Of a stretch of DNA of 37,215 bases, positions 2,585 to 10,077 are shown piece after piece. The position numbers were made by a program, and so were the translations under genes. The stretch is from a virus. Taxonomy: Duplodnaviria > Heunggongvirae > Uroviricota > Caudoviricetes. The DNA is taken from IMG/VR virus record IMGVR_UViG_2541047928_000009, positions 1 through 37,215 of that record, one strand, 5' to 3'. The notes under the pieces were generated by a model. It ran no database searches. It was given only the letters and a program-made list of their open reading frames with translations, and was not told the origin of the DNA. Each line of letters opens with the position of its first letter. Within the stretch, counting starts at the first letter, position 1.

Positions 2585-3244
2585 TCACCCAAACGTCTCT
2601 TCAGGCCATTGGCTGGCGATAACTTTCCCCACAACGGAACAACTCTCATTGCATGGGATCATTGGGTATTGTGGGTTTAGTGGCTGTAGAAACACCTGAC
2701 CGCTATCCCTGATCAGTTTCTTGAAGGTAAATTCATCACCACCAAGTCTGGCTATGCAGAAATCGCCGGGCTCAACAGCTTGCTCAGGGTCAACCAGAAT
2801 TAACATCCCGTCAGGAAAGCTGGGTTTGGAACCTGTTGGTGCGGTCATTGAGTTACCTTCAACCTCAAGCCAGAATGCAGAGTCACTGGCTTTTTTGGTT
2901 GTGCTTACCAATCTCTCCGCATCGCCTTTGGTAAAGGTTCTGAGTTCTGGAGAGAACATCCCAGCCTGAACATGAGAAAAAACAGGGTACTCATATTGTT
3001 TTTTAACTGGGGCCGATGAGTATTCGCCAACAGGTGAAAATGTCCCGTCGTGGTTGAATGATATGTTATCAATACCAAGGTATTTAAACACCACACCAAT
3101 ATCACTAAGAGATGGATGACGAGATCCGCGCAACCAGTGTCCAATCCCACCCTGCGTCATACCTAGCTCTTCGGCTAACTTCTCTTGAGTTATGCCGAGC
3201 TCTTTCATTCTGGATCTAGCCAGTTCATACCATTTCATTTTCAT
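2585..3244 (-). CDS. cI: CI prophage repressor (HTH plus LexA/S24-like autocleavage domain); the C-terminal domain reads as lambda cI, the N-terminal DNA-binding domain does not
   Basis: C-terminal ~140 aa ([26 protein letters not shown]...[12 protein letters not shown]) matches lambda cI as I recall it; N-terminus [11 protein letters not shown]...[14 protein letters not shown] is a different HTH; start taken at the ATG at 3242-3244, alternative ATG at 3236-3238. Confidence 0.85.
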
Positions 3245-3355
3245 GTCCTTATTATTACGCTCTGTACTGGAACCATCCATGCACAATGTGTATTTTTACT
3301 TGTATTCGCAAAGTACATATTGTATTTTTTTATTCGTGTTTACTATGGAGGGCAT
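3245..3355. promoter_or_regulatory. Divergent immunity control region (OR operators, pRM and pR) between cI and cro
   Basis: 111 bp AT-rich intergenic region between divergent repressor genes; contains near-palindromic TACTTGTATTCGCAAAGTAC and TGTATTTTT repeats; individual operators not resolved. Confidence 0.5.
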
Positions 3356-3712: not shown

Positions 3713-4012
3713 ATGGAAAGAACAAGTTACAGCAAACTATCACAGCGTGACGTTGATCGCGCAGAAACAGATTTACTTATCAATCTGTCAGCTATTACCC
3801 AGCGCGGTCTGGCAAAGATGATTGGCTGTCATGAATCGAAGATAAGCAGAACGGACTGGAGATTTATTGCTTCGGTCTTGTGTGCTTTCGGAATGGCATC
3901 AGACATCAGTCCGATTAGCAGGGCTTTTAAGTATGCGCTTGATGGACTCACCAATAAAAAACGCCCGGTGTGCAAGACCGAGCGTTCTGAACAAATCCAG
4001 ATGGAGTTCTGA
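3713..4012 (+). CDS. cII: CII transcriptional activator
   Basis: C-terminus [18 protein letters not shown] matches lambda cII as I recall it; the N-terminal part is divergent. Confidence 0.8.
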
Positions 4013-4044: not shown

Positions 4045-4191
4045 ATGACAAAACAACTCAGTCCTTACCAGGACAAAATTCACAAACACATACTACGTGA
4101 TCGCTTCCTGTCCAGCTTCAAGCAGTCTGGTCGATTCCGGGCTGAGTTGGAAAAAGTGAAGCTGATGCAGAAGGAGAAAGGTCATGAGTAA
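4045..4191 (+). CDS. Small hypothetical ORF (48 aa) between cII and O
   Basis: ATG at 4045 with a CAGGAGT RBS; its stop overlaps the O start; too short for the supplied ORF track; may not be expressed. Confidence 0.3.
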
Positions 4192-5044
4192 TCTTGCAAC
4201 CGTAACACATTTAAGGCCTTCACAACGGCCTGTGGAGCGTCGTGTGGCAGAAGTTGAAGATGGTTATACCCGTCTTGCAAATGCCCTGTATGAAGAGCTT
4301 ATCGGCGCAGATTTAACAAAAAATCAGAGTAAGGTTGCCCACGCCATATGCCGTAAAACATACGGATACGGTAAAAAGATGGATCGCATCTCTGATAGTC
4401 AGTTAGCTCAAATTACCAGGCTGCCAAGACAGAAGGTAAACAAGGCCAAGAATGAGCTTATCGCGATGAAGGTAATCCTTCGCGAAGGCCAGCAAATCGG
4501 GCCTAACAAGAACATCGAGGAATGGCAAATCGAAGGGTGTCACTACTCTGGTGATAATGTCACTGCATTGGTGACAAAAAGTGTCACCAAAACGGTGACA
4601 GCGCTGTCACCAAAACAGGGACACACAAAAGAAACTATTACAAAAGAAAAAAGAAATAATAAAAACACTATGTCCGAAAGTGTTCGGACGGAGTGTGAAA
4701 AATCATCTGACCGTCACGAAGAAACCGACAAGGCATTCGAGGAAATATTCTGGTGTGCAGGCATGCGGAAAGCCGGGAAAAAAAACGCAGCTTCGGCATT
4801 CAGAACACAGTTCAGGGAATGGCGTAAAACTACCAGGGGTACGGCAAGCGAGTTTGCCACGATGCTGGCAGAAGACATCGCATGCAGGAATGGTAAGCAG
4901 TTCGGATTCGACAGGTTGTTACCATCGAGCTACCTGAACGGTCAGCGCTGGAACGACGAGAAGCCAGAAACTATTCAACCACAATCCAAACCATCATCCG
5001 CAATCACCGTATCGAAAACTGGCTACGTGTTTTTCGACAGGTGA
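4184..5044 (+). CDS. O: Replication initiation protein O (lambda O-like N-terminal iteron-binding domain)
   Basis: N-terminal region [14 protein letters not shown]...[33 protein letters not shown] resembles lambda O; ori iterons lie inside the gene. Confidence 0.8.
4536..4670. repeat. Origin of replication: three or four inverted-repeat iterons (GGTGACA...TGTCACC type) followed by an AT-rich segment, embedded in the O gene
   Basis: Directly visible: TGTCAC at 4538, GGTGATAATGTCAC at about 4550, GGTGACAAAAAGTGTCACC at about 4570-4588, GGTGACAGCGCTGTCACC at about 4594-4611, then an AT-rich stretch 4625-4670; same architecture as lambda ori. Confidence 0.7.
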
Positions 5045-5151
5045 ACCATGAAATCAAAAATCAAATCGCTACTGGTCGCTGGTTATAACCACGGCTGGTT
5101 AAGTATTTCGTTTGTCGATTTCTGGTTTAAAAATCTCAATCTGAGGGAATC

Positions 5152-7032
5152 ATGAGGCCAAGTGAACTTAGCGACCTGCTTTGGGCGCAGGTTGACAGTG
5201 TGGCTCCGCACCTGTTGCCAAATGGCAAGAAAGAGGGGCATGAGTGGGTTGCCGGTAACATCAACGGTGACAAGGGAAACAGCCTTAAGGTCAACCTTAG
5301 CGGCAAGAAAAAATGGGCTGATTTCGCTGAGGGAGACGGCGGTGACATGCTTGATTTGTGGATGGCATGTCGTGGAATTAACCTGCATCAGGCTATGCAG
5401 GAAGCGAAAGCATTTCTCGGTATCAAGGATGACGATCACCATTTCGATGCCAGACGTGAGAAGAAATTCTCCAGACCTGATCGCAAGAAAATCGCCCGCT
5501 ACGTTACCAGAACAGAATCCCATCTTGAGTACCTGCAATCGCGTGGCATATCGCCAGAAATCGTAAAGCGCTACGAGGTTGTCAGCGGCAAGGTGTGGAA
5601 TGGAGAGCGGGAACTGGATGCTCTGGTGATTCCGTACAAACGCGATGGTGAGTTGTTGCAGGTCAAGCGAATCAGCACTGAGCGCCCGGACGGGAAGAAA
5701 GTCATTATGGCAGAAGGTGATTGCGAACCTTGCCTGTTCGGATGGCAGGCTCTGGACGCTGGCGTGAGGGCGGTTGTGCTTTGCGAAGGCGAAATTGATT
5801 GTATGAGCTATGCGCAATACGGCATCTCGGCGTTATCCGTGCCGTTTGGTGGCGGGAAAGGCGCTAAGCAACAGTGGATTGAGTTTGAGTATCACAACCT
5901 CGACAGGTTTGAGGAAATATTCATCTCGATGGACGTTGATGATGTTGGTCGTGAAGCCGCAAGGGAAATCGCAAGCCGACTCGGTGAACATCGTTGCCGT
6001 CTTGTTACTCTGCCGTACAAAGACATCAACGAATGCCTGATGAACGGTGTTACCGAGGATGAAATCTGGCAGTACATCGGCACGGCATCCTACTTCGATC
6101 CTGAAGAACTCTACAGCGCGCGAGAGTTTTACCAGGACACTATCAACGCTTTCTACGGCAAGCAGCAGTATCTGTTTAATCCACCGTGGGAATCTCTGGC
6201 AGATAAATTCCAGTTCCGTGAGGCAGAGTTGACGCTGGTCAATGGGGTGAACGGTCACGGAAAAACGGAGGTTGTCGGGCATATGGCACTTGAGGCAATG
6301 CGTCAGGGTGTGAAGACGTGCATCGCGTCACTTGAGCTGAAGCCTGGTATTCTCCTTAAGCGCCTTACCCGTCAGGCGACGTGCTGCAAGATGCCGCCAG
6401 TGCTGGAAATTGACTCTGCATTTAAATTTTATGACGAAAGACTTTGGGTGTTTGGCCTGACCGGAACGGCGAAAGCCGACAGGCTGATCGAAATATTCGA
6501 CTACGCTCGCCGCCGATACGGGATCCAGTTATTCATCATCGACAGCCTGATGAAATGTGGCATAGGCGACGATGACTATAACGGGCAGAAGGCGTTTGTT
6601 GACTCGATTTGCGACTTCAAAAACAAAACAAACTCCCACGTCATTCTCGTTACTCACTCGCGAAAAGGAGACAGCGAAGAAAAACCAACCGGGAAAATGG
6701 ACGTAAAAGGCTCTGGAGCGATAACAGACCTGACAGACAACCTTTTCATCATCTGGCGTAACAAGGCTCGCGAGAGAGCGTTACAGAGAGTTCAGAGTGG
6801 TGAAAAGATGTCAGAGAAGGACGAACAGCTACTGGCGTCTCCTGCATCTGTTTTGATGCTTGAAAAACAACGTAACGGCGAAGGTTGGGAAGGTGGTGTC
6901 CCGTTGTTCCTTGACGAGCAATCGCACCAGTTCCTGCAACTTGAATCAGGATCGCCATATAGCTACATCGCCAATATGCCGAAATCGGAATATGACGAGG
7001 CGTGGCGACAGGAAAACGTGACGGAGTATTAA
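5152..7032 (+). CDS. Bifunctional DNA primase/helicase (Toprim primase domain plus RecA-fold DnaB/RepA-like ATPase)
   Basis: Toprim motifs VLCEGEIDCMS and ISMDVDDVG; Walker A GVNGHGKT and Walker B LFIIDSL; occupies the position of lambda P. Confidence 0.75.
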   Translation: MRPSELSDLLWAQVDSVAPHLLPNGKKEGHEWVAGNINGDKGNSLKVNLSGKKKWADFAEGDGGDMLDLWMACRGINLHQAMQEAKAFLGIKDDDHHFDARREKKFSRPDRKKIARYVTRTESHLEYLQSRGISPEIVKRYEVVSGKVWNGERELDALVIPYKRDGELLQVKRISTERPDGKKVIMAEGDCEPCLFGWQALDAGVRAVVLCEGEIDCMSYAQYGISALSVPFGGGKGAKQQWIEFEYHNLDRFEEIFISMDVDDVGREAAREIASRLGEHRCRLVTLPYKDINECLMNGVTEDEIWQYIGTASYFDPEELYSAREFYQDTINAFYGKQQYLFNPPWESLADKFQFREAELTLVNGVNGHGKTEVVGHMALEAMRQGVKTCIASLELKPGILLKRLTRQATCCKMPPVLEIDSAFKFYDERLWVFGLTGTAKADRLIEIFDYARRRYGIQLFIIDSLMKCGIGDDDYNGQKAFVDSICDFKNKTNSHVILVTHSRKGDSEEKPTGKMDVKGSGAITDLTDNLFIIWRNKARERALQRVQSGEKMSEKDEQLLASPASVLMLEKQRNGEGWEGGVPLFLDEQSHQFLQLESGSPYSYIANMPKSEYDEAWRQENVTEY

Positions 7033-7061: not shown

Positions 7062-7093
7062 AGGCCTGCTGGTAATCGCAGGCCTTTTTATTT
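7062..7093 (+). terminator. Rho-independent terminator after the replication genes (tR2-equivalent position)
   Basis: Hairpin AGGCCTGC-(8 nt)-GCAGGCCT followed by TTTTTATTT. Confidence 0.65.
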
Positions 7094-7347: not shown

Positions 7348-7530
7348 ATGAGCGAGCAAATATTCAGAGAGATTAAGCCACGGTTTTATCGCAAGGTAAG
7401 GGTAGTTTATCAGGACGAAAACAAGACCTGTGCATACGCCATTCATAATGGTCGGTGGTCAGTGTTCGACACCAAAAACTTCGAGAAGAACTTCGAGAGG
7501 ATTAAGGGTGATGAGGAAACTAACATTTGA
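7348..7530 (+). CDS. Hypothetical nin-region protein (60 aa)
   Basis: ATG at 7348 with an AAGGAG RBS; end overlaps the ninB start. Confidence 0.45.
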   Translation: MSEQIFREIKPRFYRKVRVVYQDENKTCAYAIHNGRWSVFDTKNFEKNFERIKGDEETNI

Positions 7531-7951
7531 ACTAAGAAGCCCCATCCATCAGCAGAACGCCATTCAAGCTATCCAGCAAATCCTTCCAGACCCAACCAAA
7601 CCAATCGTAGTAAGCATTCAGGAACGCAACCGCAGCTTAGACCAGAATCGAAAGCTTTGGGCTTGCCTTGGTGACGTCTCTCGTCAGGTTGAATGGCATG
7701 GGCGCTGGCTGGATGCAGAAAGCTGGAAGTGTGTGTTTACCGCAGCATTAAAGCAGCAGGACGTTGTTCCTAACCTTGCCGGGAATGGCTTTGTGGTAAT
7801 AGGCCAGTCAACCAGCAGGATGCGTGTAAGCGAATTTGCGGAGCTATTAGAGCTTATACAGGCATTCGGTACAGAGCGTGGCGTTAAGTGGTCAGACGAA
7901 GCGCGACTGGCTCTCGAATGGAAAGCGCGATGGGGAGACAGGGCGGCATGA
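7511..7951 (+). CDS. ninB: NinB (Orf) recombination mediator
   Basis: [68 protein letters not shown]... matches lambda NinB as I recall it. Confidence 0.85.
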
Positions 7952-8130: not shown

Positions 8131-8240
8131 TTGACGTGATGATTTATTCGGGGCTATATTCCTCACACGCCAGCAAAATCTGGCGTCGGGATTGGAACCC
8201 CGATAATCATCATGGCGCATACCGCGTTAGCGGTTTTTTT
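8131..8240 (+). ncRNA. Candidate small structured RNA or tRNA-sized cloverleaf-like element: sigma70-like promoter, nested hairpins, intrinsic terminator
   Basis: TTGACG-(17-18 bp)-TATATT at 8131-8160; hairpins CGCCAG/CTGGCG (8168-8185) and TCGGG/CCCGA (8186-8203); 8 bp long-range pairing TGATGATT (8137-8144) with AATCATCA (8205-8212); terminator ACCGC-GTTA-GCGGT-TTTTTTT at 8221-8240; the supplied ORF 8085..8324 runs through this terminator. Confidence 0.35.
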
Positions 8241-8405
8241 ATGCGTAAAGCACTGCTACACCCAAATTATGGTGGGGCGTGCGGGGGAGTCGTAAGACTC
8301 GCCGGATTCCATGGTGACCGGTAGTTCCAACCCTGTACGTCTCACCACCCAATGATTGGAACCAGACGGTGGTGAGTATCCTTAACCTTTAAGGGAACTA
8401 TCACC

Positions 8406-8597
8406 ATGACAAACTTACCCCATGACTATTACGTCAATCTCGTAAAGATCCTTCTCAAGAAAGCCTCATACGCCGATAAACTCCGCCTGGCTGAAATAAT
8501 CGAGCGCGAAGCTATGCGCATCGCCAGCAACGATAACGCTGTTTCTGACGCAAAAATCTCCCTCGTAACCAAAGTAGTTATGGGAGGTGCAAAATGA
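8406..8597 (+). CDS. Hypothetical nin-region protein (63 aa)
   Basis: ORF with ATG preceded by an AAGGGAA RBS-like sequence; stop overlaps the next gene start. Confidence 0.45.
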
Positions 8598-9280
8598 AAA
8601 CGCTTCCGACCGTTAACACCCTACAGCCTATCCTGCATAATCAGATTCCAGTAATCACAACTGAGCTACTCGCCCGCCTTTATGGAACAGAAGCAATCCG
8701 TATACAGCAAAATCACCATGAAAATAAAACTCGGTTCATTGAGGGGAAGCACTTCTTTAAAGCTGTTGGTGATGAACTCAAAAATTTGCGACTAGTTTTA
8801 AACGAGTCACAAAATGAGGTACAAATTTCCCCCAAAACTCGCTCTCTCATCCTCTGGACAGAACGCGGGGCTGCACGTCACGCTAAAATGCTTGAAACTA
8901 ACCAAGCGTGGGATGTGTTCGAACGGCTGGAAGACTGCTATTTCAGCCAGTGCGAGAAAAATACTGGCAAACAAGAGAAGAAGCCCAACGGGCTTTCCGC
9001 AAAAGAAACAGACAGCCTTGTATGGCTGTGGGATTATGCCAACCGCTCACAGGCATTGTTCCGTGAGTTGTATCCCGCATTAAAACTGATTCAGTCTGGC
9101 TATTCCGGCATATGCCACGACTACGGCTATGAGTTCTCGTATATCATCGGGAGGGCGAGGGGCGTTTTAATTAATCACACGCGGGATATAGATATTTATG
9201 AGCCTGACGGGCCGACGAACCTTCTGGCATGGGAAAGGCTTAAGAACAAAGAGTTGCCGCCTTCACTGCATCGCTACTGA
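8594..9280 (+). CDS. ORF6N/KilA-N-like domain protein (putative antirepressor-like regulator)
   Basis: N-terminal segment [46 protein letters not shown]...[30 protein letters not shown] resembles ORF6N-type domains; assignment from memory only. Confidence 0.5.
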
Positions 9281-9348: not shown

Positions 9349-10077
9349 ATGACAATGAATGAGCTGATAAATAGCAACGTCATCAAAATGACAAGCATTG
9401 AAATCGCTGAGTTGGTGGGAAGCCAACACGGTAATGTCAGAATATCAATAGAACGTCTGGCAAAGCGTGGGGTGATTCAACTTCCTCCAATGCAAAAAGT
9501 TGAAAATAAACAAACAATTAGCCCTAACAAATTCACAAGCGTGTATATATTCGAAGGCGAACAAGGTAAGCGAGACAGCATTATTGTCGTCGCTCAGTTG
9601 TCGCCGGAATTCACCGCTCGTCTTGTTGACCGTTGGCGAGAACTCGAAGGGGCAACCGCGAAAATACCACAAACCTTTTCTGAGGCATTGCGCCTTGCGG
9701 CCGACCTTGAAGACCAGAAGGCTGAACTGGAGAAACAGCTTGCTCTCGCAGCACCTAAAGTTGAGTTTGCCGATCGCGTTGGCGAGGCCAGCGGAATTTT
9801 GATTGGAAACTTTGCAAAGGTTGTTGGAATTGGTCCAAACAAACTGTTTGCGTGGATGCGCGATCACAAAATCCTTATTGCTTCAGGTTCCCGGCGCAAT
9901 GTGCCAATGCAGGAATATATGGATCGCGGCTATTTCACAGTGAAAGAAACAGCGGTCAACACAAATCACGGAATACAGATATCGTTCACCACAAAAATCA
10001 CCGGGCGTGGTCAACAGTGGCTGACCAGAAAGCTGCTCGATAACGGAATGCTGAAAGTAACAGGGGAGGCTGCTTAA
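9349..10077 (+). CDS. Phage antirepressor, Rha-like N-terminal domain plus KilAC/ANT-like C-terminal domain
   Basis: N-terminal SIEIAELVGSQHGNVRISIERLAKRGVI (Rha-like); C-terminal FADRVGEASGILIGNFAKVVGIGPNKLFAWMRDHKILIA (KilAC-like). Confidence 0.65.
   Translation: MTMNELINSNVIKMTSIEIAELVGSQHGNVRISIERLAKRGVIQLPPMQKVENKQTISPNKFTSVYIFEGEQGKRDSIIVVAQLSPEFTARLVDRWRELEGATAKIPQTFSEALRLAADLEDQKAELEKQLALAAPKVEFADRVGEASGILIGNFAKVVGIGPNKLFAWMRDHKILIASGSRRNVPMQEYMDRGYFTVKETAVNTNHGIQISFTTKITGRGQQWLTRKLLDNGMLKVTGEAA

Follow-up and report, generated by a model that had tools for sequence, protein, structure and literature searches.

Introduction

Phage lambda carries its replication origin inside the gene of the initiator O. 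The C-terminus of lambda O captures the P-DnaB complex, and the DnaK/DnaJ/GrpE chaperones are needed for the release of P. Phage P22 combines an O-type initiator (gene 18) with a replicative helicase of its own (gene 12), which replaces P and host DnaB; its gp12 is homologous to DnaB and has no primase part. A further arrangement is found in phage ES18 (gp58-gp62; GenBank AY736146), where a DUF2740 gene, an O-like initiator gene with an internal ori, a gene of about 35 codons and a gene for a 626-aa primase-helicase follow one another. The 2005 GenBank annotation of ES18 already described these as "similar to lambda gpO", "rep_origin similar to lambda ori" and "putative primase/helicase; similar to phage T7 gene 4". 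The module was discussed in the epsilon34 paper of 2008 (PMC2629481) and in the Anderson typing phage paper of 2023 (PMC10307801), and the latter explicitly keeps ES18-type and P22-type modules apart. We found no experiments or biochemistry on the ES18-type module in the searchable literature, and for this reason all of its activities are given below as predictions.

Here, we describe a module with the same gene order as that of ES18. The pairing of an O-like initiator with a primase-helicase is already known and is nothing new as a genome feature; since it was annotated in ES18 in 2005 and occurs commonly among prophages of E. coli and Salmonella, the finding, though correct, is an ordinary one. 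The addition made by the present analysis is small, namely that the tail of O, a micro-ORF and the primase-helicase gene form one travelling cassette.

Results

An O-like initiator gene with an internal lambda-type origin

The window, that is, the whole stretch of DNA that was analyzed, comprises 37,215 nucleotides of a Caudoviricetes record (IMGVR_UViG_2541047928_000009). Its replication module (Table 1) is in all likelihood a lambdoid module of the ES18/mEp043/Sf101 type, with an O-like initiator and the phage's own primase-helicase. Nucleotide identity over 3.1 kb was 98% to mEp043, Sf101 and vB_EcoP-720R6, and 88% to ES18; near-identical modules are also present in SEN22 and epsilon34. As in lambda, the genes are ordered cII, O, a gene of helicase function, terminator and nin region, with the terminator-like hairpin just 3' of the primase-helicase stop codon, in the position of lambda tR2. 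The DUF2740 gene is equivalent to ES18 gp58 by its matching position, and its membership of the replication module is uncertain. Both PHROG 1913 and RefSeq name this gene "tail protein", which is at odds with its location in the early-right operon.

Table 1. Features of the replication module, with positions in the window.
Feature	Position	Strand	Details
DUF2740 gene, 48 aa	4045..4191	+	Pfam DUF2740 E 1e-27; just upstream of O, overlaps O start
Lambda O-like replication initiator gene, 286 aa	4184..5044	+	Phage_rep_O, TIGR01610
O N-terminal origin-binding domain (predicted), aa 20-114	4241..4525	+	PF04492 model positions 1-95 of 95
Four 19-bp iterons, TGTCAC-N7-GTGACA	4538..4623	.	4538-4556, 4558-4576, 4582-4600, 4605-4623
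AT-rich, A-skewed stretch, presumed DNA-unwinding element	4620..4672	.	GC 25% (4620-4679), AT skew +0.64; encodes O linker
Inverted repeat right of AT-rich stretch	4665..4696	.	Arms 4665-4678/4683-4696
O C-terminal core, aa 176-262	4709..4969	+	Without Pfam family; 358 representative clusters at E<=1e-3
O C-terminal 17-residue tail, first cassette element, candidate helicase-docking peptide	4991..5041	+	
Micro-ORF, conserved, 35 aa, MKSKIKSLLVAGYNHGWLSISFVDFWFKNLNLRES	5048..5155	+	ES18 gp60 equivalent
Bifunctional primase-helicase (predicted), T7 gp4/Twinkle type, 626 aa	5152..7032	+	PHROG 239 "DNA primase/helicase" E 3e-171
Zinc-ribbon-like N-terminal domain, aa 23-92, no cysteine ligands	5218..5427	+	CHC2 Zn-ribbon weak match E 0.26
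Toprim catalytic domain, aa 209-296	5776..6039	+	E212/E214/D216, D261/D263, D291/N293; columns invariant with T7 gp4
SF4 RecA-type helicase domain, aa 355-594	6214..6933	+	AAA_25, DnaB_C, alignment with T7 gp4
Intrinsic-terminator-like hairpin and T-run	7062..7092	+	8-bp stem, 6 GC pairs, then TTTTTATTT

The initiator matched Pfam Phage_rep_O (PF04492; E 1.1e-37, 128.8 bits against a cut-off of 28.7, aa 20-114) as well as TIGR01610 (E 1.6e-30, 105.4 bits against a cut-off of 45.5), which confirms the gene as lambda O-like, as a preliminary description based on the sequence had called it. By BLASTP, it shares 49% identity with lambda O over aa 1-157, its N-terminal part, and none beyond.

The same description had placed three or four iterons of the form GGTGACA...TGTCACC at 4536-4613 within O. 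Clustered iterons are indeed present, but that motif is out of phase, since it joins the right arm of one unit to the left arm of the next; in the proper register there are four units, spanning 4538-4623. Each has at most one mismatch to TGTCAC-N7-GTGACA, and their starts are 20, 24 and 23 bp apart. With up to two mismatches allowed, the whole window contained six matches to this motif where 1.66 were expected, and four of them within 86 bp are far beyond chance. In an alignment with lambda ori, the four iterons match the four annotated lambda iterons column for column, with the unit TGTCACC-AAAAC-GGTGACA corresponding to TCCCTC-AAAAC-GAGGGA. The AT-rich segment that had been noted in the O reading frame, as in lambda ori, is equally real: its GC content is 25%, and it is identical to the lambda AT-rich core at 33 of 34 positions. 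A palindrome lies to the right of it, again as in lambda; the core of the inverted repeat (GTCCGAA-AGTG-TTCGGAC, 4672-4689) is common to ES18 and absent from lambda in the alignment. Iterons, AT-rich stretch and palindrome are thus co-linear with lambda ori, and all lie within the initiator gene.

The type of iteron co-varies with the N-terminus of O. ES18 combines a lambda-like N-terminus with lambda-type iterons (TCCCTC...GAGGGA), whereas the window combines an N-terminus 49% identical to that of lambda O with a different specificity (TGTCAC...GTGACA). By analogy with lambda, iteron binding by O and origin melting are predicted: dimers of the initiator would bind the four iterons via the Phage_rep_O domain, and the O-some would then destabilize the adjacent AT-rich stretch.

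A T7 gp4-like primase-helicase in the place of P

A tblastn search of the whole 37-kb window for homologues of lambda P or of phage DnaC-like loaders found none (best E 0.07). The slot of P next to the initiator holds the micro-ORF and the primase-helicase gene instead, so the preliminary description was right in pairing the initiator with a primase-helicase instead of a P-type loader. It had also read Toprim (EGEID, DVDD) and Walker (GVNGHGKT, LFIIDSL) motifs in this gene; these are present, as CEGEIDC, MDVDDVG, NGVNGHGKT and LFIIDSL. Pfam returned Toprim_2 (E 3.1e-12, 47.1 bits against a cut-off of 22.1), AAA_25 and, at 23.8 and hence below its threshold of 27, DnaB_C. Profile comparison also places the protein in a helicase family, with PHROG 239 (Table 1), with T7 gp4 in the PDB (5ikn/6n7i/1q57; E about 1e-23, best 2.7e-23) and with Twinkle (6e-14). 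P22 gp12 differs in both respects, being a DnaB homologue and having no counterpart of the Toprim primase.

The protein shares with T7 gp4 and mitochondrial Twinkle the succession of a zinc-ribbon-like domain, an RNA-polymerase/Toprim domain, a linker and a RecA-type helicase domain, and it retains all catalytic motifs. In the helicase domain these are K371/T372 of Walker A, E395, D464 of Walker B, H502/K505, GSGA at 520-523 and the arginine finger R536; motifs H1, H1a, H2, H3, H4 and the arginine finger align with T7 K318, E343, D424, H465 and R522. Like T7 gp4 (...NDTDF), it ends on an aromatic residue (...ENVTEY). It differs from gp4 and Twinkle in that identity is only about 24-28% and an insertion of about 30 residues follows the arginine finger; it also has no zinc ligands, in which it resembles animal Twinkle. 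From these features, we predict that the 626-aa protein forms a hexamer that unwinds DNA 5'-3' and synthesizes primers.

The priming half of this prediction is the less secure. The zinc-binding domain of T7 gp4 is required for template-directed priming, and metazoan Twinkle, in which the zinc ligands are absent, has lost primase activity. Because the ligands are also absent here, primase function is not assured. The phage protein might be a helicase only, like animal Twinkle, with a retained but inactive primase half and with primers supplied by host DnaG or by transcripts initiated at pR. None of the four zinc-ribbon ligands of DnaG and gp4 is present anywhere in the family (no Cys/His ligand in the window protein and 35 homologues, 36 members in all), the CHC2 match reaches only E 0.26, and many homologues are labelled "twinkle protein" by JGI. 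Yet the ribbon without cysteines is strongly conserved, with P23, G42, S44, F58 and G61 invariant. An AF2 model (pLDDT 91.8) matches DnaG and gp4 primase folds, and in Foldseek searches it found the zinc-binding and RNA-polymerase domains of Aquifex DnaG (2au3, 1e-13) and the DnaG zinc-binding domain (1d0q, 8.6e-3), so that the ribbon is confidently modelled like the latter. Moreover, the Toprim acidic residues E212, E214, D216, D261, D263 and D291 are all invariant, and the phage protein has no DnaB N-terminal domain, the part of DnaB through which DnaG is recruited. We therefore consider a helicase-only role unlikely, and keep to the reading of a bifunctional enzyme.

A defence-system reading of O and the primase-helicase was also considered, and was rejected because a PADLOC scan gave only weak generic Toprim/ATPase matches.

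The O C-terminal core is not specific to the primase-helicase

It had been expected that the C-terminal domain of O would differ from that of lambda O, and it does. BLASTP similarity ends at residue 157, the last 130 residues are unrelated, and with an hhalign probability of 0.06% remote homology of the core to the lambda O C-terminus was rejected at the sequence level. The core had no Pfam match even at E 10, and a profile search of PDB sequences with the C-terminal domain returned nothing. AF2 modelling from a shallow alignment of six sequences gave three helices followed by disorder (pLDDT 57), and with this model Foldseek found nothing in the PDB below E 1.9. Word-indexed protein searches with the core yielded little besides partial and near-identical sequences, and so abundance without the diversity needed for modelling.

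Elsewhere, the core keeps other company. It adjoins a DnaC/IstB-like loader in Pseudomonas phage Skulduggery, and no recognizable helicase gene adjoins it in Vibrio phages PVA1 and D65. The ORF after the PVA1 initiator resembles lambda P by eye ("PS.GQFV"), and we do not claim it as a relative (BLASTP E 1.4, nothing in Pfam). The differing C-terminal domain is thus not specific to the partnership with a primase-helicase, and a host factor, not the phage helicase, may be what the core contacts.

Could host DnaB then remain the replicative helicase, with the core recruiting a loading pathway of the host and the primase-helicase of the phage serving as an accessory, for example in priming or in the later sigma mode? 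The partners of the core in Skulduggery, PVA1 and D65, and its occurrence as a family of 358 clusters, would fit such an arrangement. It is nevertheless very unlikely: the window has no loader gene, the SF4 helicase motifs are complete, and the primase-helicase gene lies exactly in the slot of P and is translationally chained to O. In addition, phage SI8 retains the helicase cassette even though its core is replaced. With the phage protein kept as the replicative helicase, the tail of O and the micro-ORF are the better candidates for its recruitment, since the core is also found next to a DnaC-like loader or without any helicase gene.

The O tail, the micro-ORF and the primase-helicase gene are linked across mosaic phages

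The SI8 initiator is otherwise unrelated to that of the window, and the DNA of the two is 100% identical exactly from the start of the tail (4991) onward; the junction is thus within the initiator gene, with 51 nt left to the stop codon. The micro-ORF begins 3 nt past the O stop codon, and its own stop codon overlaps the primase ATG (ATGA). It carries an annotation in ES18 and LMessi. In phi24B, the frame is open and the peptide is kept despite many synonymous changes, while the other frames have stops; in Fraca and LMessi about 50% peptide identity is retained.

Among 120 tail loci from IMG/VR picked by an exact 32-nt match, which bears on linkage and not on function, all 115 with enough downstream sequence had the micro-ORF and the primase-helicase gene next after the tail DNA. 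Nucleotide hyper-conservation of the tail region over the 120 loci was discarded as evidence, because loci chosen by an exact match to that same DNA make the test circular. The same tail closes initiators of four architectures, each with the micro-ORF and the primase-helicase gene behind it. Three of these architectures have the C-terminal core behind a window-type rep_O, a lambda-type rep_O or an HTH_36 domain, and in the fourth HTH_36 is joined to another middle part that is faintly DnaT-like. Distant primase-helicase homologues (40-60% identity) have unrelated upstream proteins, with neither tail nor micro-ORF; these proteins had DUF1376 or unannotated N-termini, and hmmsearch for the C-terminal core in them was negative.

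The cassette might be a mere homologous-recombination boundary, a linker between mosaic lambdoid genomes, in which neither the tail nor the 35-aa ORF has a role in recruitment. Four phages that have otherwise diverged share about 64 nt of tail-coding DNA at 100% identity, as would be expected from a recombination linker, and the distant relatives of the primase-helicase manage without tail and micro-ORF. However, the SI8 junction falls within the initiator gene and not at a gene boundary, and the frame and peptide of the micro-ORF survive synonymous changes, even to the divergence of Fraca and LMessi. Classical lambda genetics, in which the O C-terminus co-segregates with P, follows the same logic. 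We give the linker reading somewhat less than an even chance.

Tentatively, we would place the recruitment determinant in the last 17 residues of O, perhaps with a contribution from the translationally coupled 35-aa protein, and not in the whole C-terminal domain. A bolder proposal, possible but rather doubtful, is that the tail, the 35-aa microprotein and the gp4-like primase-helicase make up a self-contained, loader-free recruitment device that can stand behind any origin-binding domain. Docking of the hexameric ring at the melted origin, or its opening there, would then fall to the tail, to the microprotein or to both. If true, replicative ring helicases would have, besides P/DnaC-type loaders and DciA, a third route onto a bacterial-type origin.

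Discussion

The module combines parts that are known from different phages. Like P22, it has an O-type initiator and, on our reading, a phage replicative helicase that would replace both P and host DnaB. The helicase itself is of the T7 type, whereas its loading would differ from that in T7, taking place at an O-some-type origin rather than at an RNA-polymerase R-loop; nor does the window hold a cognate phage DNA polymerase. In the proposed sequence of events, the phage-encoded ring helicase, with its Toprim primase and SF4 domains, is presumably brought in at the melted origin, where it would unwind the DNA and provide host DNA polymerase III with primers. In that case, host DnaB, DnaC, DnaG and DnaK/DnaJ/GrpE would not be needed, and we infer such independence for DnaB, DnaG and the chaperones.

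Protein clusters with modules of this type number more than a thousand in Salmonella and E. coli prophages, among them the Stx2 phages phi24B and Min27. The "Eru" classification of Stx phages was considered as covering the module and was rejected, as Eru1-3 are other types (PMC8044961).

The module can be seen as a natural experiment, in which the lambda-type O-some and unwinding element were kept while the lambda loader and the host helicase were exchanged for a T7-type primase-helicase. It raises the mechanistic question of how a ring helicase is loaded without a loader, for which the conserved tail and the micro-ORF offer concrete mutational targets. It also predicts that prophages with such a module, some of them Stx-converting, would not depend on DnaB, DnaG or the DnaK chaperone system of the host for their replication.

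O and its internal origin

The initiator O matched Pfam Phage_rep_O (E 1.1e-37, residues 20-114) and TIGR01610. A pattern scan for TGTCAC-N7-GTGACA located four units inside its gene, each with 0-1 mismatch. Since only 1.66 matches are expected by chance in the whole 37-kb window even with two mismatches allowed, four units within 86 bp are not a chance occurrence. We aligned window positions 4520-4710 with the origins of lambda and Salmonella phage ES18, and the four units coincided exactly with the four annotated lambda iterons. The iteron architecture is common to both phages, but the units differ in sequence (TGTCACC-AAAAC-GGTGACA in the window versus TCCCTC-AAAAC-GAGGGA in lambda). The preliminary description had correctly placed iterons inside O; however, the unit it drew, GGTGACA...TGTCACC, is out of phase, because alignment on the lambda iterons shows that its two halves come from neighboring iterons, the right arm of the first and the left arm of the second. 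The AT-rich segment that it placed within O was recovered to the right of the iterons, where GC falls to 25% with a strong A skew; the lambda AT-rich core is 33/34 identical to this stretch. A short inverted repeat follows, as in ES18 but not in lambda.

By BLASTP, O and lambda O share 49% identity over residues 1-157, comprising the DNA-binding domain and a linker specified by the iteron and AT-rich DNA. Beyond residue 157, BLASTP detected no similarity to lambda O, and hhalign of the O C-terminal profile against the lambda O C-terminus returned a probability of 0.06%, in line with the earlier expectation of a different C-terminal domain. Set beside lambda O, the protein is chimeric in sequence. 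In ES18 gp59, a C-terminus of the window type is joined to a lambda-like N-terminus, and the iterons are of the lambda type; therefore, the N-terminus and iterons co-vary, while the C-terminus is paired with the genes downstream. Classical lambda genetics split O into an origin-specificity and a partner-specificity domain, and this pattern agrees with that split.

A known module in a lambdoid early-right operon

The replication genes of the window lie within the early-right operon of a lambdoid phage, and their module is already known. By Megablast, other phages carry the 3.1-kb module, and its identity is 98% for vB_EcoP-720R6, mEp043 and Sf101, 91.5% for SEN22, and 88% for ES18 and epsilon34; Stx2 phages phi24B, Min27, F403 and F451 match at 97-98.5% from window position ~4660 onward. 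The ES18 record describes gp59 as 'similar to phage lambda gpO', a rep_origin as 'similar to lambda ori', and gp61 as 'putative primase/helicase; similar to phage T7 gene 4', with gp60 corresponding to the micro-ORF. We noted that gp59 also carries the phrase 'inhibition of DNA replication', where 'initiation' was apparently meant; annotations that derive from this record therefore need careful reading. The C-terminal-domain profile of O matched 1,231 protein clusters at the 90% identity level, several of which occur on at least 1,000 contigs from Salmonella and E. coli. No biochemical or genetic study of the ES18-type module (DUF2740 gene, O with ori, micro-ORF and primase-helicase) was found in the literature searched, and the Stx 'Eru' classification is concerned with other types.

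Features of the replication module and neighboring elements (window coordinates)
Feature	Position	Strand	Remarks
Two overlapping genes	1239-2545	minus	Directly downstream of cI; DUF1828 / DUF6978 (Pfam)
CI-like repressor	2585-3286	minus	
Cro-like HTH protein			Between CI-like repressor and CII homologue in gene order
CII homologue	3713-4012		
Terminator-like hairpin	3958-3988	minus	Strong, 12 bp then TTTTTTATT; antisense to cII 3' end
DUF2740 gene	4045-4191		48 aa; upstream of O
O initiator gene	4184-5044		286 aa
Iterons	4538-4556, 4558-4576, 4582-4600, 4605-4623		
AT-rich stretch	4620-4679		
Inverted repeat	4665-4696		
Tail of O	4991-5041		
Micro-ORF	5048-5155		35 codons; start 3 nt past O stop, stop overlaps primase ATG
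Primase-helicase gene	5152-7032		626 aa
Primase-helicase C-terminus	6973-7029		Ends ...EYDEAWRQENVTEY
NinB	7430-7951		
isrK sRNA	8167-8240	plus	Rfam, 72 bits; nin region
C4 antisense RNA	8265-8352	plus	Rfam, 84 bits; nin region
Antirepressor-type gene	8594-9280	plus	ORF6N/P22_AR_C; after C4 RNA
Antirepressor-type gene	9349-10077	plus	Rha/ANT-KilAC; after ORF6N/P22_AR_C gene

The DUF2740 product is labeled 'tail protein' by PHROG 1913 and RefSeq (mEp043, Sf101, SEN22), a doubtful label because the gene keeps its place in the early operon, between cII and O. The hairpin is placed like the lambda oop RNA terminator. The gene pair beyond cI, placed like lambda rexA/rexB, matched PDC-M24, a candidate defence system in PADLOC (M24B, E 4.7e-10, full length; M24A, E 4.8e-4), and probably encodes an anti-phage system expressed by the prophage. 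The isrK, C4 RNA and antirepressor-type genes form a P1/P7 immI-like c4-ant module within a lambdoid phage.

Linkage of the O tail to the downstream genes

The C-terminal core of O (residues about 176-262) matched no Pfam family; its own family comprised 358 representative clusters. Downstream of the core stands a primase-helicase in phages Fraca and LMessi and an IstB/DnaC-like loader in Pseudomonas phage Skulduggery, and no recognisable helicase gene follows it in Vibrio phages PVA1 and D65. This non-lambda core is not specific to the primase-helicase.

The initiator of Salmonella phage SI8 has an HTH_36 domain and a different middle, with a faint match to the DnaT DNA-binding domain (E 0.015), and its last 17 residues are identical to the O tail. 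DNA identity between SI8 and the window rises from none to 100% exactly at window position 4991 and continues through the micro-ORF into the primase-helicase, which locates the cassette boundary at 4991. Among 120 IMG/VR loci selected for carrying the tail DNA itself, four intact initiator architectures lay upstream of the tail (all cut states counted): window-type rep_O plus core (59 loci), HTH_36 plus core, the phi24B type (26), lambda-type rep_O plus core, the ES18 type (16), and HTH_36 plus SI8-type middle (6). Two further, truncated initiator remnants were also present. The micro-ORF and primase-helicase followed in 115 of the 115 loci with enough downstream sequence; with loci selected on the tail, this demonstrates linkage and a diversity of initiators upstream but says nothing about function. 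More distant primase-helicases (40-60% identity) are preceded by unrelated DUF1376, DnaD-like or unannotated proteins, and the micro-ORF is absent beside them.

The micro-ORF had been overlooked in the preliminary description. In phi24B (MKSRIKSLLIAGYNHGWLSSAFVEFWFNRLDLRSA) its frame and peptide are preserved despite many synonymous changes, and in Fraca and LMessi both are kept at about 50% identity while the other frames are closed. Six IMG/VR relatives (L036, L048, L051, L064, L071 and L077) carry an ~491-bp insert between the micro-ORF and the primase-helicase start, the end of which encodes an HTH-like peptide (...MKLSELSTKYGVSEMQISTIRRGNAWRHL); this insert may be mobile or of the homing-endonuclease type. 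The tail or the micro-ORF might serve as a helicase recruitment device, a suggestion that we make only tentatively. The tail linkage could instead be a mere recombination boundary, which would speak against the tail hypothesis and which we rate not far short of an even chance.

The primase-helicase

The 626-aa protein matched Toprim_2 (E 3.1e-12) and AAA_25 in Pfam, with DnaB_C below threshold, and PHROG 239 'DNA primase/helicase' (E 3.1e-171). The helicase family proposed for it was thus upheld by HMM, and the motifs quoted earlier (EGEID, DVDD, GVNGHGKT and LFIIDSL) were all found. In phmmer searches of the PDB, residues 192-539 matched T7 gp4 (5ikn, 6n7i, 1q57; E about 1e-23), and Twinkle (8e2l) was matched at E 6e-14. 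An AlphaFold model of residues 1-333, built from 36 diverse homologues (pLDDT 91.8), had as its best PDB matches the zinc-binding and RNA-polymerase domains of Aquifex DnaG (2au3, 1e-13), T7 gp4 and Twinkle, and the isolated DnaG zinc-binding domain (1d0q, 8.6e-3, TM 0.67 on target).

Alignment with T7 gp4 showed that the Toprim acidic residues (E212, E214, D216; D261, D263; D291/N293), Walker A K371 and T372, H1a E395, Walker B D464, H3 H502 and K505, the H4 loop G520-A523 and the arginine finger R536 (T7 R522) are kept. Because the SF4 motifs including the arginine finger are conserved, the helicase is very probably active, and the Toprim site looks active too. By contrast, zinc cysteines C17, C20, C36 and C39 of T7 gp4 have no counterpart, and such cysteines are absent from 36/36 family members, in which the zinc-ribbon-like domain is otherwise strongly conserved. 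Animal Twinkle has likewise lost the zinc ligands and lacks primase activity; for this reason, template-directed priming by the zinc-less ribbon is only putative. A helicase-only, Twinkle-like protein with priming by the host would match this loss; set against the conserved Toprim residues, we consider it unlikely.

The C-terminus can be aligned with the last residues of T7 gp4 (...STDWSNDTDF), an acidic tail with an aromatic end that binds T7 DNA polymerase. The window encodes no phage polymerase, so any partner of this C-terminus would have to come from the host. In Stx2 phages (phi24B, L003:1996-4902; also loci L010 and L026) the protein has 968 aa, its gene is annotated 'P', and an intein with Hint and LAGLIDADG homing endonuclease domains (Pfam) is inserted directly past Walker A; the window copy lacks this intein.

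Proposed initiation pathway

By analogy with lambda, binding of O dimers to the four iterons would distort the DNA, and the AT-rich element would melt. The bubble would then receive the phage's own gp4-like hexamer, which may be brought in by the conserved C-terminal tail of O, possibly with the 35-aa protein, and the helicase would unwind and prime for host Pol III. This pathway would dispense with P, DnaB, DnaC, DnaG and DnaK/DnaJ/GrpE. Host DnaB might be imagined to remain in use, yet the entire 37-kb window encodes neither lambda P nor a DnaC-like protein, and we regard this route as improbable. The phage's own primase-helicase likely stands in for P/DnaB in a working module, and the earlier interpretation of a primase/helicase in place of a P-type loader is supported. 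What the module still offers is a tractable setting in which to study helicase recruitment without a loader at a lambda-type origin.
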